Assembly (NCBI RefSeq): GCF_000007145.1
Contig: NC_003902.1
Coordinates: forward strand, 1,207,436-1,239,435
DNA length: 32,000 nt
Direction: 5' to 3'
From: Xanthomonas campestris pv. campestris str. ATCC 33913
GTDB taxonomy: Bacteria; Pseudomonadota; Gammaproteobacteria; Xanthomonadales; Xanthomonadaceae
Position 1 is the stretch's first letter. Each line of letters begins with the position of its first letter. A program made the position numbers and the translations under genes. Positions 9,908 through 28,474 of this stretch are shown piece after piece. The notes beneath the pieces are model-generated. The model was given only the letters and a program-made list of their open reading frames with translations, ran no database searches and was not told where the DNA came from.

Positions 9908-11233
9908 TCACCCGATGCGCATTGCCGAACCCTCACGCACCCGGTTGTCCATCTCCTGCTGCTGGCTTTGCACTAATGCCTGTTGGCGATCCGTGTTGGC
10001 AATTTCCAGCCGCTGCAGCGATTGCTCAACCGGCGTCTGCACCGCGACATCGGTCGGCATGTGAGCGCGCAGGTGCGCGGGGTTATTCAATTCGCCCTGT
10101 ACAACAAACACGTGACGCCCGGCGGGGCTGTCGGCTGTCTGTGTGCTCAGCACCACGTGATCGGCGCGGTCCAGGTTGTTCTGGCGGGCGAGGGTCATCA
10201 CGCTGGCGATGAGGCGCTCACTGTTCTCGTCCGGTGTGCGCCCGGCTTGCGCATCGATGGCGTTGACGCCTGCGCGGACCTGCTGCAGCAATGCATAGTC
10301 CCGGTGGCCAGGCCCAATATCGGCCAGTTGGGTGGGCGCCTGTTTCGGGTCTAGAACGCCATCGACCGACGCGGTTAACGGGCTGCGGGTGATGGAGCGG
10401 TGCGGGTCGTCCTCATGAAACTGCGTGGCTTTGTGCTGCCGTTCCATGCGGACGGCGCGGGTATCGTTGAGTTCGGCGATACGGCCGGGATTGGTCTCTT
10501 CGCGCATGGAAAGATGCCCGCCGCCTGCGCTGACATTCACCCATTTTTGCTCTTTTTCGAAGTACATCGCATAGAAGCTGTTGCTGCCGATCACATTGGG
10601 ATCGACCGCGGAGCGGCCTTCCAGCATCTGGATCGCGTCGGTCGTCCCCAGCTTTGCCAGGTACTGGCTGCCGTCCACCACCCCCATTTGCGCAAAGGTC
10701 TCGTAGCCCGTGTTGCTGATACGGGTGGTGCCGGCGTACTCGTTGTCGAGCATGTTGGTCCAGATCTGCTCCAGCTTCTGGGGGCCGCTTTTTTCCAATG
10801 CCGCTTGCAGAAGGACGCGAGGCGTCCAGCAGTTGGGGTCGAGCTCATGGTCCAGGAAGGCTTGGTCGTGCGCCAGCATGACGGAGGCCCCGGGCAGGTT
10901 CAGCGCCAGATCTGGACGATCTTGACGGAACCAGATTTTCCGAAGTTCAAGATCCTTCTTGAGCAGTGTCTGTCCAAAATCCTCCCACTGCCGCTCGCTC
11001 AAGTCCGCGTTGGCAAAACGAGAGCCAGTATCGTGCTGTGTCCTGGCATAGTCTTGCGCGTAACTGTTGGCCACTTGGCCGGGCAAGCTGTCGTTGCGCA
11101 CCACGCCCAGCGCCAGCGTACCGTAGCCGTCCGCGCCATCCAGCTGCGAAAGATAGTTCCAGTACAACTCGCGATTGCCTTTATCCGCGTAGTTGGTAAG
11201 GATCTTGAGATCTTGCCCAGTCAATCCACTCAT
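9908..11233 (-). CDS. Putative X-T4SS effector (X-Tfe): unknown N-terminal toxin domain plus C-terminal XVIPCD secretion domain
   Basis: 441 aa. The C-terminal 132 aa (9908-10306) read ..SERLIASVMTLARQNNLDRADHVVLS....VFVVQGELNNPAHLRAHMPTDVAVQTPVEQSLQRL followed by a Gln-rich tail. This fits the XVIPCD pattern and is clearly homologous to the tail of the 16317-17981 gene. GGGAG RBS. The gene starts 25 nt after a lipoprotein gene. Confidence 0.8.
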   Translation of the reverse strand: MSGLTGQDLKILTNYADKGNRELYWNYLSQLDGADGYGTLALGVVRNDSLPGQVANSYAQDYARTQHDTGSRFANADLSERQWEDFGQTLLKKDLELRKIWFRQDRPDLALNLPGASVMLAHDQAFLDHELDPNCWTPRVLLQAALEKSGPQKLEQIWTNMLDNEYAGTTRISNTGYETFAQMGVVDGSQYLAKLGTTDAIQMLEGRSAVDPNVIGSNSFYAMYFEKEQKWVNVSAGGGHLSMREETNPGRIAELNDTRAVRMERQHKATQFHEDDPHRSITRSPLTASVDGVLDPKQAPTQLADIGPGHRDYALLQQVRAGVNAIDAQAGRTPDENSERLIASVMTLARQNNLDRADHVVLSTQTADSPAGRHVFVVQGELNNPAHLRAHMPTDVAVQTPVEQSLQRLEIANTDRQQALVQSQQQEMDNRVREGSAMRIG

Positions 11234-11258: not shown

Positions 11259-12122
11259 TCACCTGACTTTGGTGCGTGCCAGTACTTCTTTTACTGCATC
11301 CTCCATGCGTTTCCAGTCCTTCAAGAATGCACGCTTGTAGTTGAGAGTGATGGAAAGTTTGTTTTCGATATCGGAGAAGTAGTGGACGCAACTTGCAGCG
11401 ACGGCACCTTTTTCATGGACTACTTCAGATCCCTCCAGCCGAACGCCATCTCCTCGGAATTTTTTGCTGTCGCACTTGATGAATGTGGTCAAATTGCCGC
11501 TGGAGTCGCGCGCGACGTACCAGTCGTCCTCAAACGCAGGGTTGCGCGTTGGAGGCTTGCCGTAGTGGGCTTCGTACGCTTTAACGTACACCGCCATCTT
11601 TTCTTCATCGATGGCATACGGCGTCAATCCGAGTGTTTCAGGCTGTGCAATACGCAGATCGAGTCTGTCGACGGGATCACCCCGTTCGACAGAATCAGGC
11701 TCGGTAAGCGCTTCGTTAGACGAATAACGTGCCAGCAATCCTTCGATGGGGACACGGTCAACATAATTCATCGAGGCATGGATCTCCTTGCGGAAATCAT
11801 TCGTGCGCGGGTTCGCCCGCGCACCGGGCGGGGTGGGGGTCATATCTGGCCACTCGATGACCAGCGTCACCACCTCGATGGACCACGGTGCGATCTGGCT
11901 ATCCAGATAGTTGGCGGGGATGCGGAAGGTGTTCGGCCCTAGCTTCACATCGACGGGAGCATCCGAATAGGTGTGCCCGTTGATGGTGCGGCCTGTGGTA
12001 ACGGTGCCTGACATGGGGGAAGTCCTTTTTTGTTCGGGTGATGGCGTCCGTGCACAGGCACTGCCGGTGACAGCGATGGCGAGTGCAAGGGCCAGGCACC
12101 GGCCGGATGACATCATGTGCAT
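11259..12122 (-). CDS. Putative cognate immunity lipoprotein (X-Tfi-like)
   Basis: 287 aa. Lipoprotein signal MHMMSSGRCLALALAIAVTGSA-C. It lies immediately upstream of the XVIPCD gene on the same strand and looks visibly lower in GC than its neighbours. Confidence 0.65.
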   Translation of the reverse strand: MHMMSSGRCLALALAIAVTGSACARTPSPEQKRTSPMSGTVTTGRTINGHTYSDAPVDVKLGPNTFRIPANYLDSQIAPWSIEVVTLVIEWPDMTPTPPGARANPRTNDFRKEIHASMNYVDRVPIEGLLARYSSNEALTEPDSVERGDPVDRLDLRIAQPETLGLTPYAIDEEKMAVYVKAYEAHYGKPPTRNPAFEDDWYVARDSSGNLTTFIKCDSKKFRGDGVRLEGSEVVHEKGAVAASCVHYFSDIENKLSITLNYKRAFLKDWKRMEDAVKEVLARTKVR

Positions 12123-13755: not shown

Positions 13756-14241
13756 ACAGGGTGCGAGCGGGCAGAGGGCTTTCGATGGCGTGCGCGCACC
13801 TGCTCGCTAATCGAGGTGCGCTTGCCGCTACTCAGTACGGTCAATGGTCAGGTGGTACGAGACGATCGTGATTGGCCGTCGCTCAGGCGAAGTCGTTGTC
13901 GGATGATTGGTGCGGTAAATCAGGAAGGGACGGGGCAGCGCCTGTGGGACATCCATGTTCTAGGCTGGCTTTAACACAGGCCACTTCAACCTCCTTGTGC
14001 AATGCTGGTGAGCACATGGAGCCGCGCGCAGCGTGTTGTTTAAACGTTTCAAACTATCCGAATTGCTGCTCACCCCGGACAGTCGCGCTGAGTCCATACC
14101 AGATGGTGTCGTTGCGGGATGCAGCGTCTATTTCGGTCCCGCAATGGGAGCGCCGCTGAACCATTTTCGTCTGCGATCAGTCACTTGACCGAGCCTACTC
14201 ATACGGCCACAGTCCGGGACGTTCGCCCTCTTCGTTCAAGG

Positions 14242-15165
14242 ATGCCCGTGAAGAAGCTGACCCATTGCATCGTGGCGACCGCGCTGGTGCCCATCATGAC
14301 GCTTGGGTGTGCACGGCTTTCGATGGAAAAGGCTGCCGCAAAACCCCCAAGTGGTGCACAAGAAGCATCGTTTTTTCCTCAGGCGCCTGCTGCCACGCCT
14401 TCGCCTTGGGTGCCCTTCAAGCTGGAACGGCAGATGGGTGCGGTCTGTGTGGATCGTATGCAATCACAGGGTTCCTCGCCTGCACCATTGCTAAGGGACG
14501 GGTTTTGCAAAGGCCCGGCGCCTGCGCATATAGCGCGCGCATTGCTTGCCCTGCCTGCAAGTGCGGTTGACGCCTCGCCGCGAGCGCGCGAAGCGAGCCT
14601 GCGCGATGCCGTGTATGTGGCCGCACCCGGCTTGGGACGGCGCGCGGACTTCACCGTGGTTGCGGGTGATCTGACGATCCGTTCGTTTGAGAGTGCTGAG
14701 CCTGACAAAACGGTGTACGTGGTTTGGTCGGTGAAATGCGGTCCGGGCGAAGCTGGCCTCGCGTGTCAGTCAGGCAAAGGCCGCAAAGCCTATCGCCTCG
14801 GTAAGGACGGCACCGCACATGACGTCAGTGCATTGGTGTTCCCGCCGGTGCCCAGCCTGAGCGCTCAAGACATTGCCAGGCAAAACGACCACGGCGGCTC
14901 GGAGCTTTTTCTGTTCGACGACAAGCTACCTGTGGCGTCGACAATGCGATGGCTGATGGAATTTGATCCCGACCAGCCACTGGCCACCGATGACCCGAAG
15001 CGCGTCGGGTCTTACGCCCATTTTGGTTTTCTTCGGTGGACAGGCGAACGCTTCGAGCTGGTAGAGCGAGTCCCTAGAGCGCAGTGGCCATGTCGTCAGC
15101 AACGCACAGGCCAACCCGCGTGCTCGGATTATCCCGATGGTGAGGACCGTTTCGTTTCGAGGTAA
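14242..15165 (+). CDS. Periplasmic lipoprotein, paralogue A (putative X-Tfi immunity protein)
   Basis: Lipobox IMTLG-C after MPVKKLTHCIVATALVP. AAGGA RBS. Homologous along its whole length to the next gene, with six conserved Cys. Confidence 0.7.
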   Translation: MPVKKLTHCIVATALVPIMTLGCARLSMEKAAAKPPSGAQEASFFPQAPAATPSPWVPFKLERQMGAVCVDRMQSQGSSPAPLLRDGFCKGPAPAHIARALLALPASAVDASPRAREASLRDAVYVAAPGLGRRADFTVVAGDLTIRSFESAEPDKTVYVVWSVKCGPGEAGLACQSGKGRKAYRLGKDGTAHDVSALVFPPVPSLSAQDIARQNDHGGSELFLFDDKLPVASTMRWLMEFDPDQPLATDDPKRVGSYAHFGFLRWTGERFELVERVPRAQWPCRQQRTGQPACSDYPDGEDRFVSR

Positions 15166-15329
15166 ATGCAGTGGCAACACGGATTACCATGCTGTTAGGT
15201 GCGGCATGAGGTGAAAGGCTCGCGCACGAGTCACTAGACCAGAACTGTAAGCAGTGCGACGCAGAGCAATGACGTGTTTTGGTAAAAATTACGTAGATCT
15301 TGGGCTACCCCATTCAGACGGAGCAGAGC

Positions 15330-16247
15330 ATGCGTCATCGCCATTTAAACGGACTGGTTGTGGGTGCCGTGTTCATCGCTGCAGCTGGATGCGCCCAAGA
15401 CAGCGCGCGCTCGGCAAACCGTACCTCTACGGCAGCACCCGCCTCCGAGCATGCCTACCCAGCAGTGCCATCGTCTTCTCCAAAGCCTTGGAAGCGCTTC
15501 GCGCTGGAGCAAGGCATGGGGGCAACGTGTTCAACCCGGTCGCAGCGAACCTCTTCTGGCCGCAGCGCCCTGCTGCCGGCTGACGAATGTATCGGCCCTG
15601 CGCCGCGTCCCCTTGCCAAAGTCATTTTGTCGCTTACACCGTCTGATCTTGGGCTTTCAGTTGAAGCACGGGGCGAGGCCTTGAAGCATGCCGTTTACGT
15701 TGCGTCACCTGGCTTGGGTGAGCGCGCGGACTTCTTGTTGGCGAGCGATAAATTCTGGGTGCGCTCATTCGAATCGCATGATCCGCTTCAAACCGTTTAT
15801 CTGGTCGGCGGTGTGAGCTGTACCGATCAGGCATTGAACTGCAAAGATTCGCGTGGAGTACGCGGGTTCCGGTTTGAGGGGAAAGATCGGCTTGTGGATG
15901 TCAGTAAGAACGTATTGCCAGCGGCGCCTACATTGTCCGAAGACGACGTGCGTCGCTATCAAGCCTATGCGGAGCCGGTTCCCTCTCTGGATGTTTCGCG
16001 TCTGTGGCAGGTTCCCGTGTTGCGCTGGGTCATCGAATTCGACCCGGATGCGCCGTTGGCCGGTGACCCGCGCTATTACAACGATTGGGCGTATCTACAT
16101 TTCGGGTTTCTGGTATGGAACGGAAAGCGCTTCGATTTGATGGATAAGGTTGATCGCTCACGTTGGCCGTGTAGGCCCGTCGCTGAAGGAACGGCGGCCT
16201 GTTCTGGCCCGCTGGATAACAGGGGCGATCGTTTCGTCACTCCTTAG
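15330..16247 (+). CDS. Periplasmic lipoprotein, paralogue B (putative X-Tfi immunity protein)
   Basis: Lipobox AAAG-C after MRHRHLNGLVVGAVFI. GGAG RBS. Blocks shared with paralogue A: AVYVA.PGLG.RADF, RSFES..P..TVY, RW..EFDPD.PLA, HFGFL.W.G.RF.L...V.R..WPCR and DRFV. Confidence 0.7.
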   Translation: MRHRHLNGLVVGAVFIAAAGCAQDSARSANRTSTAAPASEHAYPAVPSSSPKPWKRFALEQGMGATCSTRSQRTSSGRSALLPADECIGPAPRPLAKVILSLTPSDLGLSVEARGEALKHAVYVASPGLGERADFLLASDKFWVRSFESHDPLQTVYLVGGVSCTDQALNCKDSRGVRGFRFEGKDRLVDVSKNVLPAAPTLSEDDVRRYQAYAEPVPSLDVSRLWQVPVLRWVIEFDPDAPLAGDPRYYNDWAYLHFGFLVWNGKRFDLMDKVDRSRWPCRPVAEGTAACSGPLDNRGDRFVTP

Positions 16248-16316
16248 AGTAGCTACCAAAACGATGGCGTCGCTACGTTTTGTTGGCCGTTCTTAATCGA
16301 TGCATGGAGAGCAAAG

Positions 16317-17981
16317 ATGGCTCGGGTCATAGAGTTCAATATCAAAGAGCGTGCGGATGAAGTGGTGGTGTTGTTCAATGCGAACCGTCCAGCAGACGCG
16401 GTGGCATTGCTGGAACAACACCGCCAGGGACAGCCTGAGGTCGTGCGAGAAAGCATGGACCGTTATGTCGGCAGCCAGGCAGAGCGCGGCATCGCCAGCG
16501 GTGCTGAAGGCCCGCAGACACCCTCCGTAGCAGCAGGGCTACAGCGCCTACAAGGCATCCCAACAACTCCACCGAGATTTCCAGCCGAAGCGGAGATGGC
16601 GGTTCTTTCCGACCGGCAGAAGTACGACGTCTACGCAAGTATCGCCCAGGCTCGCGGCAACACGGCCGCGGATCAATCGCTGGCCACGCCAGGGCAACGG
16701 GTCATCTTGGGGTTGCGCCAAGAAAACTCCACGCTCGACGCCATGGTAGATTCGGCTCATCCAACGCAACGAGCGGCAGATAACCCGGCAACTGCGCGTG
16801 ACGAATCGCGTGGCGGCAGTGGCGTCTACAACGACCGCTTGGTCGTCTTGTGGAAGGATGCTGACGGCACCCCGCACGTGGTGGAATCCAATCGCGCCAA
16901 TACAGAGCCCACCGCGCAATACGACCATCACGCCGGCAATACGGGAGCGAGGCCGCTGGGCGAGGGCGGCCGCGAGAATCGACGATTCGATCCTTCCCCT
17001 GGGTTTGAAAGCATTACGCGGCCCCGCAAGATCGAAGGTGACGACGTCAATGCAGACGGCGTTCGAGATCTTGGACGTCTGCATGACGGCACGATCGAAA
17101 TGCAGAGGGCGCAGCATCCCAATCCTTTGCTGGCCGGAACCCTGGACGACGCGCTGAGGCCCAGTCAGGCTGCGGTCACCGCAGGGCGCGAGATGGTGCA
17201 GCGAGACAGCAATGCCGATGGTTGGTTCGATTAGACCGATGTCAACGGTACGCAGGATCTCAACGACACGTTCAAGATCCATCGCGGATCACGTGGAAGT
17301 ACGGATTCCGCCGGTTGCCAGACGATCCACGCGGACGACTACGACGCGTTCATGGATGCTGTTCAAGGCAACCCCGCACAAACGCGCTGGCAATACGTGC
17401 TGACCAGCACCACGCCCGGGCCGGTGCGGGAGCAGCAACGGGACCAAGGGCGAGGGAATGAAGGGGCACAGCCAGGGCAGGAGGAGCGGGGGCATCCGCC
17501 GGCCCAGCCGCAGCGGCAGAACGGCGGGCCTGCAGCGCCTGTGCCTGGGAGGCCACGACAGGCAGACGCAGAAGACGCCCAACCCGCGCCTCACCCGTTG
17601 CATGCGCAGGCCAGCACCTTGGTCGGCCGGCTGGACGCCAGCATGGGCCGCGCCAGCGATGCGCACAGCGAGCGGATGAGCGCCAGCCTTGCGCACTTGG
17701 CAAAGGAGCATGGGCTTGAGCGGATTGATCACGTAATGCTGAGCAACCAAACATCGCGTGCAGCGGCCGGTGCCACCGTGTTCGTGGTACAGGGCGAACC
17801 CAGCAACCCGGCCCATCTGCGCGCCAGCATGCCCACCGATCTGGCTGTCACTACGCCGGTGGAGCAGTCGCTGGCAAAGCTGCAGGAGCTAGATGCGCGT
17901 ACCTTGGCGCAAGCGCAGAGTCAGGCGCAGGAAAGAGCGGTGGCTCAGGAAGAGGCGGTCAAGCCCCGGAGTATTGGGTGA
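16317..17981 (+). pseudogene. XVIPCD-tailed X-T4SS effector gene interrupted by one in-frame TAG (17232-17234)
   Basis: ORFs 16317-17234 and 17352-17981 are in the same frame. Reading through the single TAG gives a continuous 553-codon product. The C-terminal 129 aa (17592-17981) are an XVIPCD homologous to the 9908-10306 tail, preceded by a Pro/Gln/Gly-rich linker. Confidence 0.75.
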
Positions 17982-18108: not shown

Positions 18109-18639
18109 GTGGAATTGAAGCCCCAGGATCTGGTGGTGCTGTACAAGCAAGTCGCCCAGGCGAACCAAACCTGGACCTATGCCTCGCTGGGAGAAGCGCT
18201 GGGCATGAGCGCCTCTCAGGTGCATCGCAGCGTCAAGCGCGCGGTGGCATCTGGTTTGGCTCTTGAAAAAAGCCGGGGCGAGTGGGAGACGGTGCGCACG
18301 GCTTTGCACGAGTTTGCGGTCCACGGCGTGCGCTATGCCTTTCCTGCCGTCATCGGGCCGCTAAAGCGCGGCATTCCGACCTCCTTTGGCGCGCCTCCTC
18401 TGTCCATTGCCATTTCCAGCGCCCCAGGGGACGCACCGGTATGGCCAAGCGCGCAGGGCACGTCCAAAGGGCCTAGCTTGTCGCCGTTGTCAGCCGGTGT
18501 GCCCACTGCTGCGATGGCCGACCCTGCCTTGCATGCGCTGCTGGCGCTGCAGGATGCCCTGCGCAGCGGGCGTGCCCGCGAGCGCGCGCTGGCAGCAAGC
18601 TATCTCAAGCAATTGCTGGGGATTGGTGATGCGGCCTGA
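18109..18639 (+). CDS. Winged-helix/HTH protein, AbiEi-like antitoxin/regulator candidate
   Basis: 176 aa, GTG start. The N-terminal TYASLGEALGMSASQVHRSVKRAVASGL is HTH-like. The 3' end overlaps the next gene by 11 nt. Confidence 0.55.
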   Translation: MELKPQDLVVLYKQVAQANQTWTYASLGEALGMSASQVHRSVKRAVASGLALEKSRGEWETVRTALHEFAVHGVRYAFPAVIGPLKRGIPTSFGAPPLSIAISSAPGDAPVWPSAQGTSKGPSLSPLSAGVPTAAMADPALHALLALQDALRSGRARERALAASYLKQLLGIGDAA

Positions 18640-19315
18640 TGATCCTAATCTGCCGCATCTGCTTGTGATTGCGGATGCATTGGGCGAGCTTCGCGAACAC
18701 GTAGTCTTTCTTGGCGGGGCAGTGGTTGGCCTGCTGGTGTCGGATCCATTGGCTGAAAACGTCCGCGCCACCTATGACGTCGATGCGGTGGTCAATCTTG
18801 ATTGGTCTCGGTTTCGCGGTATTGAGGCGCGTGTGGAATCGCAGGGCTTCGCGCGCGAGATGCAGAGCGGCGTCGTCTGCCGCTGGGTACACAAAGCATC
18901 GGGCTTCATCTTCGACTTGATGCCAGTGGATGAAGGCGTGCTTGGATTCTCCAACCGCTGGTACGCCCATGCTGTAGAGACGGCCCAAGTGGTGGCCTTG
19001 AGCGATCGCCTGTCCATCCGTTTGGTGACAGCGACAGCATTCGTGGCGACCAAGCTCGAAGCCTTCGTTACCCGAGGCAACAGTGACTTCCTTTCCAGTC
19101 ACGACCTAGAGGACGTCCTCAATGTCGTCGATGGCCGGGCCGAGCTGGTGGAAGAGCTTGCCGTGGAGCATGCAGACCTTCGGCATTGGGTTGCCGACGT
19201 GTTTTTGGGGCTAGTCGATAACCCGACGTTTGTGAATGCGTTGCCGGGATTGGTCGCCGAACCGGAGCGCGCAAGCGTCGTGCTTCAGCGCCTACGCACC
19301 ATTGCATCAGCGTAG
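18629..19315 (+). CDS. Pol-beta-fold nucleotidyltransferase, AbiEii-like toxin candidate
   Basis: 228 aa from ATG 18629. FLGGAVVGLL..NVRATYDVDAVV (GG..R.T.DxD), FIFDLMPV (second acidic motif) and ATKLEAF (K..A) match the NTase motif order described for AbiEii/DUF1814-type toxins. Confidence 0.6.
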   Translation: MRPDDPNLPHLLVIADALGELREHVVFLGGAVVGLLVSDPLAENVRATYDVDAVVNLDWSRFRGIEARVESQGFAREMQSGVVCRWVHKASGFIFDLMPVDEGVLGFSNRWYAHAVETAQVVALSDRLSIRLVTATAFVATKLEAFVTRGNSDFLSSHDLEDVLNVVDGRAELVEELAVEHADLRHWVADVFLGLVDNPTFVNALPGLVAEPERASVVLQRLRTIASA

Positions 19316-19370: not shown

Positions 19371-19393
19371 TTGCGATCATGCATCGCAATTGC
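19371..19393. promoter_or_regulatory. Overlapping inverted repeats upstream of the ParD-like gene (possible operator)
   Basis: TTGCGAT-catgc-ATCGCAA (19371-19389) overlaps the palindrome GCAATTGC (19386-19393), about 20 nt before ATG 19411. Confidence 0.4.
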
Positions 19394-19410
19394 AACGCAC
19401 TGGGCCGGCC

Positions 19411-19674
19411 ATGAAATCCGCATCACTTCCATCGCTCCGGGTAGACCCGGCGCTGCGCGAAGCGGCCGAAGCCGTGTTGCAGGAGGGTGAGACGCTTTCC
19501 AGCTTTGTCGAGCACTCCGTGCGTGCCCAGGTGCAGCAGCGCCAGCAGCAGGAAGCCTTCATTGCCCGTGGGCTGGCTTCGCGTGACAGCGCCAAGGCAT
19601 CCAACCGGTACATCGAGGCGAAGGATGTGCTGGCCGGGCTGCAGTCCCAACTGGACAAGGCGCGCAAGGGCTGA
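19411..19674 (+). CDS. RHH-type antitoxin, ParD/CopG-like
   Basis: 87 aa. The N-terminal beta-strand/helix pattern SLRVDPALREAAEAVLQEGETLSSFVEHSV fits a ribbon-helix-helix. It lies directly upstream of a ParE/RelE-like gene. Confidence 0.6.
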   Translation: MKSASLPSLRVDPALREAAEAVLQEGETLSSFVEHSVRAQVQQRQQQEAFIARGLASRDSAKASNRYIEAKDVLAGLQSQLDKARKG

Positions 19675-19680
19675 GCCAGC

Positions 19681-19989
19681 GTGGGATATTCCGTCCGCTT
19701 CACTCAGTACGCGCGCAACGATCTCGCGCGTCTTTACGACTGGCTGCTACAGCGTGCCGAAAGCGGCTTCACCGTGGTCGAGCGCGCGCTGCAGGCCATC
19801 CGCGACGGCGTCACCGTGCTGGCACTTGCCCCGTTGAGCTGCCGCAAGGCGGTGCCGGCAGACCCGTTCTTGCGGGAGTTGGTGATCGGCTTCGGTGCCA
19901 GCGGCTATGTGCTGCTGTTTGAGGTTGAAAGCAATCAGGTCGTCACCGTTTTGGCAGTCAGGCATCAGCGTGAAGACGACTATCATTGA
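19681..19989 (+). CDS. ParE/RelE-family toxin
   Basis: 102 aa, GTG start 6 nt after the antitoxin stop. Y..A..DL..LYDWL.. followed by LRELVIGFGASGYVLLFEVESNQVVTVLAVRHQRE is the typical ParE/RelE C-terminal beta-sheet. Confidence 0.75.
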   Translation: MGYSVRFTQYARNDLARLYDWLLQRAESGFTVVERALQAIRDGVTVLALAPLSCRKAVPADPFLRELVIGFGASGYVLLFEVESNQVVTVLAVRHQREDDYH

Positions 19990-20026
19990 GTTAGGCACCT
20001 GCGTCCACCTCTTGGCGTGAGAGTCG

Positions 20027-23000
20027 ATGCCCGGGCAGGGCCAAAATCAGGGGTTAAAGATAGTGAGTGACCAGTTTTTCAAGCAGCCTATTCTCAATTC
20101 TCCATACGGTTACCCGTCTTTGCACTGGGAGCTCGACGAAAAGGGGCAACCTACACAGCAAGTAGTCAAATCTCGCCGAGCATCCAGCTTCGTTAGTCCG
20201 ATTCCAAAGCCACGTCGGCACCAGGGCGAGCAGGCTACCCTGGCGCTGGATGAAGTTGAGAGCCTGGCTGACGACGGGCAGCGCTACCGACACTCTGAGC
20301 TAATCAATTCGGTGCGGCGGGAGGTCGATGCTTGGCGTCTCTTGCCACCTGCGCAGTGGCGCGTCACCCCTGAAACAGCCCGCTTACTGGAACATTGGCG
20401 CAACCACAAGTTCGCCGGTGTGCGCCCATTCTTTTGCCAAGTAGAAGCGGCCGAGACCGCCATCTGGTTGGCCGAGGTCGCTCCACAGCTTGGAAAGAAC
20501 GGCGAGCGCTTCCTCGATCACCTGAAAAAGGCCAGCACTGATGCCAATCCCGGCTTGATGCGTTTGGCGCTGAAGCTGGCGACTGGTGCAGGCAAGACCA
20601 CGGTCATGGCCATGCTCATTGCCTGGCAGACGGTTAATGCCGTACGGCATCCGCAGAGCAAGAAATTCACCCGTGGTTTCTTGCTGGTCGCTCCTGGCCT
20701 GACCATCAAGGATCGTTTGCGTGTGCTATTGCCCAATGATGCAGACAGCTACTACGCCAACCGCGAAATCGTGCCACGCGACATGCTGGCCGATTTGGAC
20801 AAGGCCAAGATCGTTATCACCAATTACCACGCTTTCAAGCGACGTGAACGCATGGAGCTGTCCAAGGGCGGCCGCCGCCTGTTGCAAGGCCGTACCGGCA
20901 GCGAGCTGGAAACGCTGGAAACCGAGGGACAGATGCTCCAGCGAGTCATGCCGGAATTGATGGGGCTGAAGAATATTCTTGCCATCAACGACGAGGCACA
21001 CCATTGCTATCGGGAGAAGCCGCACGCTGCCGTAGACGATGAAGATCTCGATAAAGATCAGAAAGCGGAAGCCGAGGACAACAATGAAGCCGCTCGGCTT
21101 TGGATTTCTGGCCTAGAAGCGGTCAACCGCAAGCTGGGGCTGCAGCAGGTGATGGACCTGTCTGCAACGCCTTTCTTCCTGGCCGGCTCTGGCTATGTGG
21201 AGGGCACGCTCTTTCCGTGGACGATGAGCGATTTCTCGCTGATGGACGCTATCGAATGCGGCATCGTCAAGTTGCCGCGCGTGCCGGTCGCCGACAACAT
21301 TCCCGGTGCGGAAATGCCCATCTATCGTGAGCTCTGGAAGCACATAGGCAAGAAGATGCCGAAGAAGGGGCGCGGCAAAAACGCCCAGCTCGATCCATTG
21401 GCCATCCCGGTGGAATTGCAGACCGCACTGGAAGCTCTGTACGGCCACTACCTCAAAACCTACGAAGCTTGGAAGCAGGCAGGCATCAACGTTCCGCCAT
21501 GCTTCATTGTGGTGTGCAACAACACCGCAACTTCCAAACTGGTGTTCGATTACATCTCCGGCTTCGAGCGCACGAATGAGGATGGCTCCAGCACGCGTGT
21601 GCCAGGCCGGTTGGAGCTGTTCCGCAACTTCGACGAACATGGCGAGCCGCTGGCGCGCCCAAACACCTTGCTGATCGACAGCGAGCAACTCGAATCTGGC
21701 GAGGCGCTGGACGATAACTTCCGGGGGATGGCCGCCGACGAGATCGAACGCTTCAAGCGCGAGATCATCGAGCGCACCGGCGATCGCGGCCAGGCTGAGA
21801 ACCTGAGTGACAGCGAATTGCTGCGAGAGGTAATGAACACCGTGGGCAAGCAGGGCCGCTTGGGCGAACAAATTCGCTGCGTGGTGTCGGTGTCCATGCT
21901 CACGGAAGGTTGGGATGCCAATACCGTTACCCACATCCTCGGGGTGCGTGCGTTCGGCACCCAACTGCTGTGCGAGCAGGTGATTGGCCGTGCCCTGCGT
22001 CGTCAGTCCTATGAATTGAACGAACAAGGCCTCTTTGACGTGGAGTACGCCGACGTATTCGGCATCCCCTTCGACTTCACAGCCAAACCAGTCGTCGTCA
22101 CGCCGCCCAAGCCCCGCGAAACCATCACAGTCAAGGCACTGCGCCCGGAACGCGATCATCTGGAAATCTGGTTCCCGCGCGTGCAGGGCTATCGCGTCGA
22201 GCTGCCAGAAGAACAACTCGAAGCTGAATTCAACGACGACCACCACGTCAGCCTGACGCCCGACAGGGTTGGTGCGACCAAGACCCACAACGCCGGCATC
22301 ATTGGCGAGGCAGTGGAGCTGGATATCAAGCATCTGGGAGACGTGCGCCAGTCCACCCTGCTGATGGAGTTGACCAAGCATCTGCTGTTCCAGCATTGGC
22401 GTGATAAAGGCCAGGATGCACCGATTGCATTGTTTGGTCAGCTCAAGCGCATCGTGCGCCAGTGGCTGGACGAGTGCCTGGAGTGCAAGGGCGGCACGTA
22501 TCCGGCGCAGTTGATGTACCGCGAACTGGCGGACATGGCCTGCCAGCGCATCACCAAGGGTATTACCGCGAAGGAACTGGAAAAGGGCCGGCAGGTCAAA
22601 GCCATCCTCGACCCATTCAACCCGACCGGCAGCACCGCGCACGTGCGTTTCAACACTTCGCGTCCGGGCAGTGAACGCTGGGAAACCCTCGGTGTAGAGA
22701 ACCAGCCGAAAAACCAGGTCAACTGGGTGATTCTGGACAGCGGCTGGGAAGGCGAATTCTGTCGCATCGCCGAATCGCATCCCAAGGTGCTGGCCTACAC
22801 CAAGAACCACAACCTCGGCCTGGAAGTACCCTACCGCTTTGGCTCGGCCAACCGCATCTACATACCTGACTTCATCGTTCAAGTGGACGATGGTCGCGGC
22901 AAGAACGATTCACTGAATCTGATCGTCGAGATCAAGGGCTACCGGCGCGAAGATGCGAAGGAGAAGAAGTCCACCATGGACACCTACTGGATTCCTGGCG

Positions 23001-23149
23001 TGAACCACCTCGGCACACACGGTCGCTGGGCCTTCGTCGAGTTTGGTGACGTTTACGAAATGCAGGATGACTTCGCCAAAGAGGTCGAGGCGAAGTTCAA
23101 CCAAATGATTGAAACGGCTGTGCCCGCGCCGGGAAACAAGGAATACTGA
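20027..23149 (+). CDS. Type III restriction Res-like subunit: SF2 DEAH helicase with a C-terminal PD-(D/E)xK nuclease
   Basis: Walker A TGAGKTT (20582-20602), DEAH (20990-21001), motif VI QVIGRALRR, and a C-terminal IPDF..(20 aa)..VEIKG nuclease-like motif. The alternative GTG start at 20063 gives MSDQFFKQPILNSPY. Confidence 0.85.
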   Translation: MPGQGQNQGLKIVSDQFFKQPILNSPYGYPSLHWELDEKGQPTQQVVKSRRASSFVSPIPKPRRHQGEQATLALDEVESLADDGQRYRHSELINSVRREVDAWRLLPPAQWRVTPETARLLEHWRNHKFAGVRPFFCQVEAAETAIWLAEVAPQLGKNGERFLDHLKKASTDANPGLMRLALKLATGAGKTTVMAMLIAWQTVNAVRHPQSKKFTRGFLLVAPGLTIKDRLRVLLPNDADSYYANREIVPRDMLADLDKAKIVITNYHAFKRRERMELSKGGRRLLQGRTGSELETLETEGQMLQRVMPELMGLKNILAINDEAHHCYREKPHAAVDDEDLDKDQKAEAEDNNEAARLWISGLEAVNRKLGLQQVMDLSATPFFLAGSGYVEGTLFPWTMSDFSLMDAIECGIVKLPRVPVADNIPGAEMPIYRELWKHIGKKMPKKGRGKNAQLDPLAIPVELQTALEALYGHYLKTYEAWKQAGINVPPCFIVVCNNTATSKLVFDYISGFERTNEDGSSTRVPGRLELFRNFDEHGEPLARPNTLLIDSEQLESGEALDDNFRGMAADEIERFKREIIERTGDRGQAENLSDSELLREVMNTVGKQGRLGEQIRCVVSVSMLTEGWDANTVTHILGVRAFGTQLLCEQVIGRALRRQSYELNEQGLFDVEYADVFGIPFDFTAKPVVVTPPKPRETITVKALRPERDHLEIWFPRVQGYRVELPEEQLEAEFNDDHHVSLTPDRVGATKTHNAGIIGEAVELDIKHLGDVRQSTLLMELTKHLLFQHWRDKGQDAPIALFGQLKRIVRQWLDECLECKGGTYPAQLMYRELADMACQRITKGITAKELEKGRQVKAILDPFNPTGSTAHVRFNTSRPGSERWETLGVENQPKNQVNWVILDSGWEGEFCRIAESHPKVLAYTKNHNLGLEVPYRFGSANRIYIPDFIVQVDDGRGKNDSLNLIVEIKGYRREDAKEKKSTMDTYWIPGVNHLGTHGRWAFVEFGDVYEMQDDFAKEVEAKFNQMIETAVPAPGNKEY

Positions 23150-23150
23150 T

Positions 23151-26069
23151 ATGGCAACGAAGAAAACAGAGAAGCACGGCAAGAGTATCGAGCAGATCAC
23201 TCATACCGAGGCCAAACGCAAGAACATTCCGACGGTGGAGCATCAGTCGGTGATGCAGCATCACGAGCAAGCGCCGGTGCAGGTGGCCTACCCACGTGCC
23301 AACCGGCAATGGTTAGAGGAACTGTGCGCTTTGCATGACGCGGGAAAGGTCTCCCAGGAATTCCAGCAGCGACTTAACCGCGATCTTGACCCGCAACTCA
23401 TCTGGCGCGGCAAGGACCAGCAGGATTGGTCGGATCTGGTCGTCAACGCGCCGCCTCTCTACATCCAGGAAAAGGTCAAGCCCAAGGCGCTGATCGACGA
23501 CCTGCGCCGTCAGACCGACGCGCGCCGCGAAGCCGCCGCGCCGCAGCAGCAGGACATGCTGGATCTATTCGGCGACTTCAACGGCCTGCCCGAAGGCGCG
23601 GACCGCACCGAGTTCTACCAGCACGAGGGCCATTGGCAGAACCGTATGATCCTGGGCGATTCCTTGCAGGTGATGGCCAGCCTGGCCGAGCGCGAAGGGT
23701 TGCGCGGCAAGGTGCAGTGCATTTATTTCGATCCGCCGTATGGCATCAAATTCAACAGCAATTTCCAGTGGTCAACCACTAGCCGTGATGTGAAGGATGG
23801 CAATACCGGCCATATCACTCGCGAACCGGAGCAGGTTAAGGCGTTCAGGGATACCTGGCGCGACGGGATTCATTCGTATCTGACGTATTTGCGTGACCGA
23901 TTGATGGTGGCGCGGGATTTGTTGACGGAATCTGGGTCGATCTTTGTGCAGATTGGTGATGAGAACGTGCATCGCGTGCGGGCTGTGCTTGATGAAGTTT
24001 TTGGCGAAGATAACTTTGTCTCTATGATTCAGGTGCAAAAAACAGGTAGCCAAGCGTCAAATCTTTTGGCGAATACAGTTGACTTTGTTTTGTGGTATGC
24101 CCGCACAAAGAAAAAAGTCAAATATCGACAGCTTTACTCGGACCGCACTGCAGGGCATGTTTCTTCCGATCGCTACGATCAAATCGAACTTGACGACGGC
24201 GAAGAACGTCGGCTTAAGCGTGATGAATTGGATAGAAAGGTTGAAATTCCGCCAGGCCGAATTTTTCGGCAAACTAGCCTAATATCATCTGGTCAAGCGT
24301 CAAGCGAACAAATCTTTGTTTTTCAGAACAAGCAATATCGTCCGGGTGCATCGAATCATTGGAAAACGACAGTCAGTGGTCTTGGCGTTCTTGCAAAGGC
24401 AGGGCGTATTGCGGCAGGCGCGTCAACGGTGCACTACAAACGCTATCTTAATGACTTCTCCGTTTTGCCTATCGCAGATCGTTGGGAGTCGCTGCAAATC
24501 GGCACGGGCTTGATCTACGTTGTGCAAACCGCAACCTCAGTCGTAGAGAGGTGCCTGTTGATGGCATCCGACCCTGGCGATCTAGTGCTCGACCCTACCT
24601 GCGGCTCCGGTACCACCGCCTATGTTGCCGAACAATGGGGACGCCGGTGGGTGACCATCGACACAAGTCGCGTCGCGTTAGCACTGGCCCGCGCGCGGAT
24701 AATGGGAGCGCGCTACCCGTATTATCTACTGGCCGATTCCCGCGAAGGTCAATTGAAGGAGGGCGAGATTACCCGCTGCGCGCCCTCCAGCCAGCCCGCC
24801 TGGGGTAACATTGTCCACGGCTTCGTCTATGAACGCGTGCCACACATCACGCTCAAATCCATCGCCAACAACGCCGAGATTGAAGTCATCTGGGACAAGT
24901 TCCGGACTACGCTGGAGTCGCTGCGCGAAAAGCTGAGCCATGCACTCGGCAAGCAGTGGAAGGAGTGGGAGATTCCGCGCGAAGCCGATGCAAAATGGAG
25001 CCATACCGCGAAAGAGTTGCATGCCGACTGGTGGCAGCAACGAGTCGCCTGCCAAAAGGAAATTGACGCCTCGATCGCGGCCAAGGCCGAGTTCGAGTAC
25101 CTCTACGACAAACCCTACGGGGACAAGAAGAAGGTGCGAGTGGCGGGCCCCTTCACGGTTGAATCGCTTAGTCCGCACCGCGTATTGGGCGTGGACGAGG
25201 AAGACAACCTGATTGACCATGTGGCCGAGACCCAAGCCGAATACGGTCAGGACTTTGCCAGCCTGATCCTGGCCAACCTGCGCACCGCCGGTGTGCAGCA
25301 GGCACGCAAGGCCGACAAGATCGAATTCACCTCACTAGAGCCGTGGCCGGGCGAACTGGTCTGCGCCGAAGGCCGCTACCTCGAAAATGGACAGGTGAAG
25401 CGTGCCGGCATCCTAGTTGGTCCGGAATTTGGCACGGTCACCCGCGCTGACCTAGTTGATGCCGCCCGCGAAGCGGGTGATGCCAACTTCGATGTACTAA
25501 TTGCCTGCGCCTTTAACTACGACGCTCCTGCCAGCGAGTTCAGTAAGCTGGGCCGCATCAATGTACTCAAAGCGCGCATGAATGCCGAGCTACACATGGC
25601 CGAAGACCTGAAGAACACCGGCAAGGGCAATCTGTTCGTGATCTTCGGCGAGCCGGATGTGGACGTGCTGGACACACAGGGTCACAGCATCCGCCGATAC
25701 GATGGCAAGCGTGACGTTATCGAGGTACCTGCCGACGGGCAACTGGTGGTGCGCATCAACGGCGTGGATGTATTCCATCCCAGCACCGGTGAAGTGCGTA
25801 GCGACGGTGCAGACGGCATCGCCTGCTGGTTTTTGGATACCGACTACAACGAGGAATCCTTCTTCGTCCGCCATGCCTACTTCCTCGGCGCGAACGACCC
25901 GTACAAGGCTCTGAAGACTACCCTCAAAGCTGAAATCGACCCCGACGCCTGGGCAACGCTCAACTGCGACACCTCGCGCCCTTTCCCGAAACCGAGTAAC
26001 GGTCGGTTTGCGGTGAAGGTCATCAATCACCTCGGTGATGAGGTGATGAAGGTATTTAAGGTGAACTGA
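23151..26069 (+). CDS. Beta-class (motif IV before motif I) N6-adenine-type DNA methyltransferase, 972 aa, Mod-like with a long C-terminal extension
   Basis: DPPY at 23730-23741 and DPTCGSGTT at 24591-24617. AAGGAA RBS. ATG lies 1 nt after the Res stop. About 440 aa follow motif I. Confidence 0.9.
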   Translation: MATKKTEKHGKSIEQITHTEAKRKNIPTVEHQSVMQHHEQAPVQVAYPRANRQWLEELCALHDAGKVSQEFQQRLNRDLDPQLIWRGKDQQDWSDLVVNAPPLYIQEKVKPKALIDDLRRQTDARREAAAPQQQDMLDLFGDFNGLPEGADRTEFYQHEGHWQNRMILGDSLQVMASLAEREGLRGKVQCIYFDPPYGIKFNSNFQWSTTSRDVKDGNTGHITREPEQVKAFRDTWRDGIHSYLTYLRDRLMVARDLLTESGSIFVQIGDENVHRVRAVLDEVFGEDNFVSMIQVQKTGSQASNLLANTVDFVLWYARTKKKVKYRQLYSDRTAGHVSSDRYDQIELDDGEERRLKRDELDRKVEIPPGRIFRQTSLISSGQASSEQIFVFQNKQYRPGASNHWKTTVSGLGVLAKAGRIAAGASTVHYKRYLNDFSVLPIADRWESLQIGTGLIYVVQTATSVVERCLLMASDPGDLVLDPTCGSGTTAYVAEQWGRRWVTIDTSRVALALARARIMGARYPYYLLADSREGQLKEGEITRCAPSSQPAWGNIVHGFVYERVPHITLKSIANNAEIEVIWDKFRTTLESLREKLSHALGKQWKEWEIPREADAKWSHTAKELHADWWQQRVACQKEIDASIAAKAEFEYLYDKPYGDKKKVRVAGPFTVESLSPHRVLGVDEEDNLIDHVAETQAEYGQDFASLILANLRTAGVQQARKADKIEFTSLEPWPGELVCAEGRYLENGQVKRAGILVGPEFGTVTRADLVDAAREAGDANFDVLIACAFNYDAPASEFSKLGRINVLKARMNAELHMAEDLKNTGKGNLFVIFGEPDVDVLDTQGHSIRRYDGKRDVIEVPADGQLVVRINGVDVFHPSTGEVRSDGADGIACWFLDTDYNEESFFVRHAYFLGANDPYKALKTTLKAEIDPDAWATLNCDTSRPFPKPSNGRFAVKVINHLGDEVMKVFKVN

Positions 26070-28147
26070 TGGAATTCCGGATCGCCGATACGTTTACTAC
26101 CAGCCTTGCCCGCTTGACCGGTGATGAGCAGAAGGCCGCCAAGACCACCGCGTTCGATTTGCAGGTTAATCCGAGCGGCAAGGGTATGAGCTTTCATAAG
26201 CTCGACAGGGCCAAAGACCTGAATTTCTGGTCAGTGCGCGTCAGCCGTGACATCCGTCTGATCGTTCACAAAACAGCGGGCAGCCTGTTGCTGTGCTACG
26301 TCGATCACCACGACAGGGCCTATCAATGGGCCGAGCGGCGCAAGCTTGAGGTGCATCCGACGACCGGCGCGGCACAACTCGTCGAGATCCGCGAACGTGT
26401 CGAGGAAATCCTCGTTCCGAAGTACGTCGAGGATCGTGCATCGGCTACGCGCCCTAAGCCGAAATTTTTCGAAAAATACAGTGATGCGCAATTGCTGGCC
26501 TATGGCGTGCCGCAGGAATGGCTAGGCGATGTAAAGGCTAGCGATGAGGATTCGCTGCTGGATTTGGCTGATCACCTGCCGGGCGAAGCGGCCGAGGCGC
26601 TGCTCGAACTTGCGACCGGCGGTACGCCTGCGTTGCCGGAAGTGGCGAGCAAAGGAGCAGACCCATTCCAGCACCCCGATGCGCAACGCCGCTTCCGCGT
26701 CATGTCTGATATGGACGAGTTGGTTCGCGCCCTTGAGTATCCATGGGACAAATGGACTGTGTTCCTACATCCGGCACAGCGGCAACTCGTCGAACGGAAT
26801 TACAACGGAGCGGCGCGCGTGTCCGGCTCGGCGGGCACGGGAAAAACTGTGGTGGCTTTGCACCGCGCTGTGCATCTGGCACATAAAGATGAAGACGCAC
26901 GTGTTCTGCTTTCCACGTTTTCCGATACCCTGGCCAACGCGTTGCGCGGCAATCTGTACCGACTTATCTGGAACACTCCTAAGCTCGGCGAGCGTATCGA
27001 CGTGGCTGCGATGGAGGCTATCGGTATTCGCTTGTATTCAGCGGAATTTGGCAAGCCAGTATTCGCTAGCCGGGATGAAATTTCCACTCTGCTGAAGGCT
27101 GCCGCCATGCAAGTCGATGGCCTGAAAGCCAACACTGCATTCATGCTCTCCGAATGGGAGGACGTGGTAGACACCTGGCAGGTCGATGACTGGGAGAGTT
27201 ACCGGGATGCCAAGCGGTTGGGCCGAAAGACGCGCCTACCGGAGGTGCAGCGCGCCTTGTATTGGCAGGCATTCGCCCAAGTAAAGTCACAGTTGGAACA
27301 GGCTGGCAAGATCACTGCCGCTGAAATGTTCGCTAGGCTTGCCGAAGTCATGCCCAAGCGTAAGCATCCGGTATTCGATTACATCGTGGTGGATGAGGCG
27401 CAGGACATTAGCGTGCAACAATTGCGCTTCCTTGCAACGATTTCCGGCAATCGCGCCAATGCACTCTTTTTCTCTGGCGACCTCGGCCAACGCATCTTCC
27501 AGACGCCGTTCTCGTGGAAACATCTGGGTGTTGATGTGCGTGGTCGATCGCGCACGCTCAATATCAATTACCGTACGTCACACCAGATTCGCTTGCAGGC
27601 CGACCGGCTACTCGGCCCCGATGTATCTGATGTGGACGGAAACGTCGAAAGCCGTAAGGGCACAATTTCCGTGTTCAATGGGCCGGAGCCGACCATCTGC
27701 AGCTATGCCGATGCCGACGCGGAAATCCAGGCTGTCGGTGTATGGTTGAAACAATGCAATAGCAGTGGCGTGCTGCCGCAGGAAATAGGTCTCTTTGTCC
27801 GGTCCGAAAGTGAATTGTCTCGCGCACAAGCGGCAGTAAAGGCCGCTGACCTGCAAGGGCGCGCACTTGGTAAGGACATGGCCACGGAAGAGAGCTTCGT
27901 CACTATTACCACCATGCATTTAGCCAAGGGCATGGAATTTCGCGTGGTTGCGGTGATGGCCTGCGATGATGAAATCATTCCTTCACAGATGCGCATCGAC
28001 ACTGCTGCCGACGAGGCCGATTTGACCGAAATCTACAATACCGAGCGCCAGTTGCTGTACGTGGCTTGCACCCGTGCCCGCGATCAGCTGCTTGTCTCGG
28101 CAGTGAAGCCGGAGTCTGAGTTTTTGCGAGATCTGGTGCAAGAGTAA
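26069..28147 (+). CDS. SF1 UvrD/Rep-like helicase with an N-terminal RelE/ParE-like domain
   Basis: ATG overlaps the Mod stop (TGATG). Motifs: GSAGTGKT (26825-26848), VVDEAQD, GDLGQRIF, INYRTSHQI, TMHLAKGMEFRVV and LLYVACTRARDQL. N-terminal roughly 90 aa: F..SL..L...EQ....TAFDLQ.NP..KG...HKL.......WSVRVSRDIRLIVHK...SLLLCYVDHHDRAYQWA. Confidence 0.85.
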   Translation: MEFRIADTFTTSLARLTGDEQKAAKTTAFDLQVNPSGKGMSFHKLDRAKDLNFWSVRVSRDIRLIVHKTAGSLLLCYVDHHDRAYQWAERRKLEVHPTTGAAQLVEIRERVEEILVPKYVEDRASATRPKPKFFEKYSDAQLLAYGVPQEWLGDVKASDEDSLLDLADHLPGEAAEALLELATGGTPALPEVASKGADPFQHPDAQRRFRVMSDMDELVRALEYPWDKWTVFLHPAQRQLVERNYNGAARVSGSAGTGKTVVALHRAVHLAHKDEDARVLLSTFSDTLANALRGNLYRLIWNTPKLGERIDVAAMEAIGIRLYSAEFGKPVFASRDEISTLLKAAAMQVDGLKANTAFMLSEWEDVVDTWQVDDWESYRDAKRLGRKTRLPEVQRALYWQAFAQVKSQLEQAGKITAAEMFARLAEVMPKRKHPVFDYIVVDEAQDISVQQLRFLATISGNRANALFFSGDLGQRIFQTPFSWKHLGVDVRGRSRTLNINYRTSHQIRLQADRLLGPDVSDVDGNVESRKGTISVFNGPEPTICSYADADAEIQAVGVWLKQCNSSGVLPQEIGLFVRSESELSRAQAAVKAADLQGRALGKDMATEESFVTITTMHLAKGMEFRVVAVMACDDEIIPSQMRIDTAADEADLTEIYNTERQLLYVACTRARDQLLVSAVKPESEFLRDLVQE

Positions 28148-28343: not shown

Positions 28344-28418
28344 GTCGGGAGGGCGGCTAATACAACACCCGCAAGGGGAATACGCCCGCCGGCTGTACGC
28401 GGTTTCGAGCCTCCCGAC
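28344..28418 (+). other. Predicted structured RNA element / 5' leader upstream of the small ORF pair
   Basis: 9-bp closing helix GTCGGGAGG / CCTCCCGAC. An inner helix GCGG/CCGC encloses a CCC-GCAA-GGG (GNRA) hairpin. Downstream are a CGCC-TTGC-GGCG hairpin and the palindrome TTCCATGGAA (28452-28461), just before the GAGGAG RBS. Confidence 0.3.
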
Positions 28419-28474
28419 TTCCCGTCCGTCGCCTTGCGGCGGGTGGGCTGATTCCATGGAATGAGGAGCAGGCC

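Follow-up and report, generated by a model that had tools for sequence, protein, structure and literature searches.

A probable recent nonsense pseudogene of an X-T4SS effector, with candidate immunity genes retained, in Xanthomonas campestris pv. campestris ATCC 33913

The closest described systems to the locus reported here are the X-Tfe/X-Tfi pairs. In pairs such as XAC2609/XAC2610 and Smlt3024/Smlt3025, the effector has a C-terminal XVIPCD and a variable N-terminal toxin domain, and lipoprotein immunity genes are adjacent to it; our locus shares this layout. Split X-Tfe genes are also on record. XAC1164/XAC1165 of X. citri is an X-Tfe split by a frameshift; Smlt0113, the gene it was compared with, is intact (Sgro et al. 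2019, PMC6536674). There, as in our locus, the toxin part and the XVIPCD are found in separate ORFs, and the authors deemed the pieces to be probably non-functional (PMC6536674). The vir locus is reported to be fragmented in Xcc strains ATCC 33913 and 8004 (PMC6536674). No vir genes were found within the window analyzed here, which is a 32,000-nucleotide stretch of the ATCC 33913 genome (contig NC_003902.1, positions 1,207,436 to 1,239,435).

The locus contains two candidate immunity genes followed by an effector frame that is interrupted once. Its features are as follows, with positions counted from the first letter of the window.

14119..15165 (+): ORF of candidate immunity gene 1, for an X-Tfi-like lipoprotein; likely start ATG 14242 or GTG 14248, signal peptide ending in ..IMTLGC
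15300..16247 (+): ORF of candidate immunity gene 2, paralogous to gene 1; likely start ATG 15330 (MRHRHLNGLVVGAVFIAAAGC), lipoprotein-type signal ..IAAAGC; ends in TAG
16317..17234 (+): first effector fragment, codons 1-305 and the premature TAG; contains the N-terminal helical region (1-92) and, as residues 93-305, ~77% of the toxin domain from its N-terminal end
17232..17234 (+): premature amber codon 306; C to T at 17232, changing CAG (Gln) to TAG
17235..17420 (+): rest of the toxin domain, codons 307-368; invariant His322 (17280-17282) and Cys334 (17316-17318) in FKIHRGS..TDSAGCQTI, codons read from the sequence
17421..17582 (+): low-complexity Q/P/G-rich linker, codons 369-422; pLDDT below 50 for 368-422 in the AlphaFold2 model, variable in alignments
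17583..17981 (+): XVIPCD (Pfam match to codons 423-523; PF20410, E 7.2e-27), C-terminal tail and TGA; now split off from the toxin fragment

We propose that this locus is an antibacterial effector/immunity module of the bacteria-killing T4SS of the Xanthomonadales (X-T4SS), in which two paralogous genes for periplasmic lipoprotein immunity proteins precede the effector. The ancestral effector would have been a 554-aa protein with an N-terminal helical region, a toxin domain of ~275 residues with a His/Cys pair, a disordered linker, and an XVIPCD. The C-terminal XVIPCD would be recognized by the VirD4 coupling protein for export, and the toxin domain would attack peptidoglycan in the periplasm of the target cell. 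In the ATCC 33913/Xc86 lineage, a single C-to-T transition has changed Gln306 from CAG to amber TAG; translation would end inside the toxin domain, and the strain would no longer deliver the toxin. The upstream candidate immunity genes are unaffected, so the cell should stay protected against sister strains that fire the intact toxin.

A second, intact X-T4SS module lies 4 kb from the broken one. It consists of a 287-aa Smlt3025-family inhibitor (11259-12122, minus strand; NF050129, 548 bits against a cut-off of 500) preceding a 441-aa Smlt3024-family effector (9908-11233, minus strand; NF050128, 852 bits against 800). The two modules are divergent around an SDR/TetR gene pair, and the window therefore holds a small effector island. 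Downstream of the split effector, two overlapping plus-strand genes at 18109-19315, coding for 176 aa (HTH) and 228 aa, match PADLOC PDC-M21A/B with E-values of 7e-42 and 1e-61. PDC-M21 is a candidate defence system. Every X. campestris locus that was examined has it conserved directly 3' of the effector. The plus-strand region at 19390-28147 holds a YlcI/YnfO-type antitoxin paired with a ParE toxin, and then a BPTD_3080-family restriction endonuclease of 1040 aa, a type III methyltransferase of 972 aa, and a UvrD/NERD-like helicase. PDC-M21, ParE, and this type III R-M system make up a variable defence island: other X. campestris strains have Mrr and a type I R-M cassette at this position after ParE, which indicates a variable defence slot. 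At 28344-28426 on the plus strand, the Rfam sRNA-Xcc1 (RF02221) is matched over the full model length with 78.4 bits against a gathering score of 53.

Translation of the effector region gives one frame of 555 codons, which runs from 16317 to 17981 on the plus strand. Its sole internal stop is the TAG at 17232-17234, at codon 306 (..SNADGWFD*TDVNGTQDLNDTFKIH..), and its natural terminator is the TGA at 17979-17981. The ORFs at 16317-17234 (305 aa) and 17352-17981 (209 aa) share this frame, with an offset of 1035 nt, or 345 codons. A single frame broken by one TAG was the starting point of the original prediction, which proved accurate to the base. Homology to the single-ORF 554-aa orthologues is unbroken across the amber codon, and chance is therefore not at issue for the split.

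The protein had also been called an XVIPCD effector from its letters, and profile searches with the reconstructed protein bear this out. Pfam PF20410 (X-Tfes_XVIPCD) scores 94.4 bits over residues 423-523, where the cut-off is 24.9. The C-terminus aligns in sequence with the XVIPCD chains 9p3h, 7r6s, and 7mu9 of the PDB, and 7r6s and 7mu9 are matched by Foldseek as well. Among 5.8 billion proteins searched there were 284 relatives, which come from Xanthomonas, Lysobacter, Stenotrophomonas, Luteimonas, and Pseudoxanthomonas and are mostly named 'XVIPCD domain-containing protein'. The domain boundaries are clear in the AlphaFold2 model of an intact orthologue (P0001, mean pLDDT 85.6), which has four parts: a helical N-terminus (~9-123), a single uninterrupted beta-rich domain (~129-366), a linker (368-422) that is disordered, with pLDDT values under 50, and the XVIPCD. 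A toxin domain and an XVIPCD on one polypeptide, as expected of an X-Tfe, are present in the orthologues and not in the window. There, the TAG at codon 306 separates the toxin domain from the XVIPCD, and the window copy therefore reads as an X-Tfe pseudogene.

Orthologues were compared for a sense codon at position 306, as had been suggested with the original prediction. Every close full-length orthologue has Gln at this position, and the 554-aa X. campestris orthologues are otherwise identical. Three partial X. campestris products (P0122, P0126, and P0128, with 461, 344, and 412 aa) equal the window translation over their full length except for Q306. The arrangement that had been named as speaking against a nonsense mutation, with all orthologues being two separate genes, was not found; intact orthologues are single ORFs with Gln306. 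Between the window and L005, a near-isogenic ENA metagenome scaffold with a matching gene neighborhood, there are 6 SNPs over 12.7 kb. One is at 17232, which is T in the window and C in the scaffold, and none is in the two upstream genes. Together, Gln306 in the orthologues and the C at 17232 in L005 demonstrate a CAG-to-TAG transition and show that it is very recent.

The single base that separates the two states, together with the otherwise identical intact alleles in other strains, would also fit a sequencing or assembly error, in which case the real genome would have CAG and an intact gene. However, the same TAG is present in genomes from two platforms. The ATCC 33913 record is a Sanger-era complete genome (2002; 5,076,188 bp), and in its protein AAM40360.1 the last residue (..NADGWFD) is exactly that of the 305-aa product. 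X. campestris Xc86 was sequenced by Illumina MiSeq in 2018 (PMC6025950), and its draft is an Illumina/SPAdes assembly. Contig QCWZ01000139.1 of this draft (GCA_003111945.1) matches 12.9 kb of the window with 100% identity and has the same TAG. The 305-aa product is recorded on 5 contigs (NCBI and Logan), of which QCWZ01000139.1 is one. It is very unlikely that a substitution error would be repeated across platforms. We therefore treat the sequencing error listed in the original prediction as excluded, its chance being close to nil. The TAG is present in independent assemblies of what may be the same strain or lineage, given that Xc86 was sequenced as a 'reference' X. campestris. The TAG allele may thus be limited to a single strain lineage, or may even have arisen in culture.

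Even with a true TAG, a small amount of full-length toxin might still be made if the amber codon were read through or suppressed, whether this is programmed or simply tolerated; dosage control would be one possible use. Five of the six premature stops across species in this effector family are TAG, as could be expected if this codon were tolerated. However, TAG accounts for 57% of the single-nucleotide routes to a stop in the effector gene, and five of six is not unusual on this basis (binomial estimate, p~0.19). The premature stops in other species are also at different, non-homologous positions, and close relatives simply have CAG at codon 306. TAG is the genuine stop of both the adjacent immunity gene 2 and PDC-M21B, and the ending of immunity gene 2 in this codon indicates that TAG terminates translation in this genome. 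No tRNA is present within the window. Nothing was found to favor the low-level readthrough that the original prediction had offered as a possibility, and we consider it extremely improbable.

The favored explanation is a recent nonsense mutation with retained immunity, one of the possibilities raised at the outset. It is the one that fits Gln306 in the orthologues, the C/T difference at 17232, and the intact upstream genes. We give a probability of roughly 90% to the reading that the gene is a recent, ordinary nonsense pseudogene of an X-T4SS effector whose immunity has been retained.

The 305-aa product is without the probable catalytic pair His322 and Cys334, the last three strands and a helix of the fold, and the XVIPCD, as judged from the AlphaFold2 model and the sequence. 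The stop is upstream of both the invariant His322/Cys334 motif and the XVIPCD. As originally proposed, neither effector fragment is expected to be both active and secretable, and a functional effector product would be absent from the TAG strain.

It has to be considered whether the two ORFs could be a functional two-gene arrangement, in which the N-terminal fragment and a separately translated XVIPCD-only protein would both have roles, the XVIPCD remnant serving, for example, as a VirD4-binding decoy or adaptor. Small ORFs with only an XVIPCD recur in Xanthomonas (XAC0323, XAC1165, XAC3404; PMC6536674), and in-frame ATGs are present downstream of the amber codon at 17352 and 17643. Against this, the orthologues are single ORFs, and the authors of the review regard the XVIPCD-only ORFs as probably non-functional fragments (PMC6536674). 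No Shine-Dalgarno-like sequence was read before either of the candidate restarts, and a promoter/terminator scan around the locus found no promoter-like site for the downstream remainder. The split cannot be older than a few SNPs, and there is no sign of adaptation to the split state. Such an arrangement is therefore highly improbable. In promoter/terminator and repeat scans around the locus, nothing of relevance to the split exceeded shuffle expectation.

Consistent with a recently inactivated gene, no extra substitutions have accumulated in the TAG lineage. Estimates of dN/dS between species (window compared with X. codiaei, X. euvesicatoria, and X. bonasiae) were ~0.05-0.1 both for codons 1-305 and for codons 307-367; within the TAG lineage, dN/dS of the two halves is uninformative because there has been no divergence since the mutation. 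The dN/dS of the XVIPCD was similar to that of the other parts of the gene where the XVIPCD is homologous. The low values in all parts of the gene indicate that the whole effector was under purifying selection until recently.

Divergence along the effector is mosaic when 17583-17981 is compared with L002 and L013. In comparison with X. campestris pv. raphani, codons 1-422 have a dS of 0 and one replacement (F7L), while the XVIPCD has a dS of 0.21. In comparison with X. bonasiae, the toxin domain is conserved and the XVIPCD is essentially unrelated (dN 1.5). This pattern suggests that the XVIPCD and linker may have been swapped by recombination.

The two genes upstream of the effector encode proteins that are 37% identical to each other (E 6e-65). 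Searches of Pfam, NCBIfam, and PADLOC gave no family match for either one. Both ORFs are intact and are identical in L005, the near-isogenic strain with the intact effector, which upholds the earlier claim that both immunity genes had survived. Because both are upstream of the effector, the nonsense codon can have no polar effect on them. Linkage between effector and immunity homologue is firmly established: among 79 loci, taken from one genome per species, a homologue directly adjoins the effector on the same strand in 68. The homologue is 5' of the effector in the Xanthomonas/Luteimonas branch and 3' in the Lysobacter/Stenotrophomonas branch, and arrays of 2-4 copies are found in some loci. 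Some Xanthomonas species have only the first paralogue and one has only the second; both are present in the campestris/codiaei/euvesicatoria/prunicola/dyei group. X-Tfe genes have an adjacent, usually upstream X-Tfi gene, whose product is often a lipoprotein. With two such paralogues upstream and the linkage in 68 of 79 loci, we infer that these lipoproteins are the cognate immunity (X-Tfi) proteins.

The immunity genes and the effector (14248-17978) have a third-position GC of 0.59-0.72. Such values look low for Xanthomonas chromosomal genes and would fit horizontally exchanged cargo.

The toxin domain spans ~275 residues (~93-368; window positions 16590-17420), and the amber codon falls inside it, before the invariant His322 and Cys334 and before the XVIPCD. 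Conserved residues are present on both sides of the stop. In 93 family members, R296, D297, N299, D301, and G302 before the stop are invariant or nearly so, as are H322, G324, T329, D330, S331, A332, G333, C334, T336, and WQY 358-360 after it. In 29 distant proteins plus the reference, H322, G324, S331, and C334 are conserved in 30 of 30. Over the toxin domain as a whole, R134, D173, T196, D243, R296, H322, S331, and C334 are invariant.

A profile of residues 92-368 found 425 relatives of the toxin domain among 1.84 billion representative proteins. In many of these, the same module, ~230 residues long, is at the extreme C-terminus. The modules that precede it in remote relatives are LysM, PG_binding_1, glucosaminidase, phage lysozyme, CHAP/NlpC-P60, and VgrG3-like C-terminal domains. 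The toxin domain matched no Pfam or NCBIfam family, and four divergent members had no Pfam match at E<=10. A PADLOC scan of the domain returned no family. There was no PDB match at E<=10, and a PDB search with the family profile returned XVIPCD structures only. These fusion partners, the lipoprotein-type immunity candidates, and the H-x11-SAGC motif suggest that the toxin domain would act as a peptidoglycan-directed enzyme in the periplasm of the target cell. It probably represents an unnamed family of peptidoglycan-acting enzymes.

Structural comparison gave one lead. With the full-length model, Foldseek returned mostly XVIPCD and helical-repeat noise. With a domain-only model (pLDDT 82.5), the best match was Tlde1a (7uma_A, 7uo3_A), which was not significant (E 0.57, probability 0.15, TM 0.18/0.27). 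Tlde1a is an L,D-transpeptidase-like T6SS effector of Salmonella. The effector resembles Tlde1/YkuD proteins in having a His followed ~10-17 residues later by an S-x-G-C motif, and in its putative periplasmic peptidoglycan target. The effector keeps the order of these residues and the S-x-G-C core. However, it has H322-x11-C334 within H-R-G-S..T-D-S-A-G-C-Q-T, compared with H-x(14-17)-[S/T]-H-G-C-h-R in Tlde1/YkuD, so that the two residues are more closely spaced and the trailing Arg is missing. No YkuD or Tlde1 (DUF2778) HMM was matched at E<=10. The relation is one of resemblance and not of membership, and Tlde1a is kept as a lead only.

Disruption of the effector is not limited to the window. 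Independent nonsense or frameshift lesions were found in ~8 effectors among the 79 species-representative loci (L012, L016, L020, L045, L049, L053, L061, and L084). Premature TAG or TGA stops are present in X. dyei, X. nasturtii, X. floridensis, S. maltophilia R-24, and a MAG, and frameshifts in X. phaseoli and X. hortorum; the effector of a Pseudoxanthomonas MAG is also among the ~8 that are disrupted. The adjacent immunity ORF is full length in 4 of the 5 nonsense cases, and the fifth, X. nasturtii, cannot be judged because its ORF runs up to the start of the contig. In X. phaseoli, decay has affected the immunity gene as well as the effector. The X. phaseoli locus (L045) was considered as a possible counterpart of the published XAC1164/XAC1165 split. 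Its ORFs are 390 and 285 aa, compared with the published 437 and 127 aa, and equivalence is not claimed.

A wider reading of these lesions would be that disarmament with immunity kept (an 'immune non-shooter') is recurrent and possibly selected, and that the toxin domain is a new, unnamed peptidoglycan-directed family of His/Cys enzymes that also occurs in proteins with LysM and lysozyme fusions. We consider this reading, taken as a whole, to be unlikely. The number of lesions is too small to separate selection from neutral decay.

With the nonsense pseudogene as the preferred reading, 16317-17981 should be annotated as one X-Tfe pseudogene in place of two hypothetical proteins, and it should not be taken for granted that ATCC 33913 deploys the effector toxin. 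The locus would be a cleanly dated first step of effector loss with immunity retention in a bacteria-killing T4SS, consisting of a single SNP with the intact allele in circulation. A natural isogenic pair is available for competition experiments. If confirmed, an uncharacterized X-Tfe toxin domain with an invariant His/Cys pair, which other proteins carry in fusion with peptidoglycan-binding and -cleaving modules, would matter more broadly.

In contrast to the known X-Tfe pairs, the toxin domain of this effector has no match to Pfam, NCBIfam, or a solved structure, two paralogous immunity genes are present, and the effector ORF is interrupted. The locus also resembles T6SS, CDI, and bacteriocin loci with orphan or retained immunity genes beside a decayed toxin, where the toxin is inactivated, the immunity is kept, and the cell is protected but disarmed. 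It differs from these in its X-T4SS context and in being an apparent early snapshot, one SNP old, and not a long-standing orphan island. When compared with XAC1164/XAC1165, the lesion is a single nonsense substitution and not a frameshift, and it cuts inside the toxin domain. The split can also be dated as very recent because intact, otherwise identical alleles circulate in X. campestris. Split X-Tfe genes have already been described; what is added here is a nonsense example with the intact progenitor allele still in circulation.
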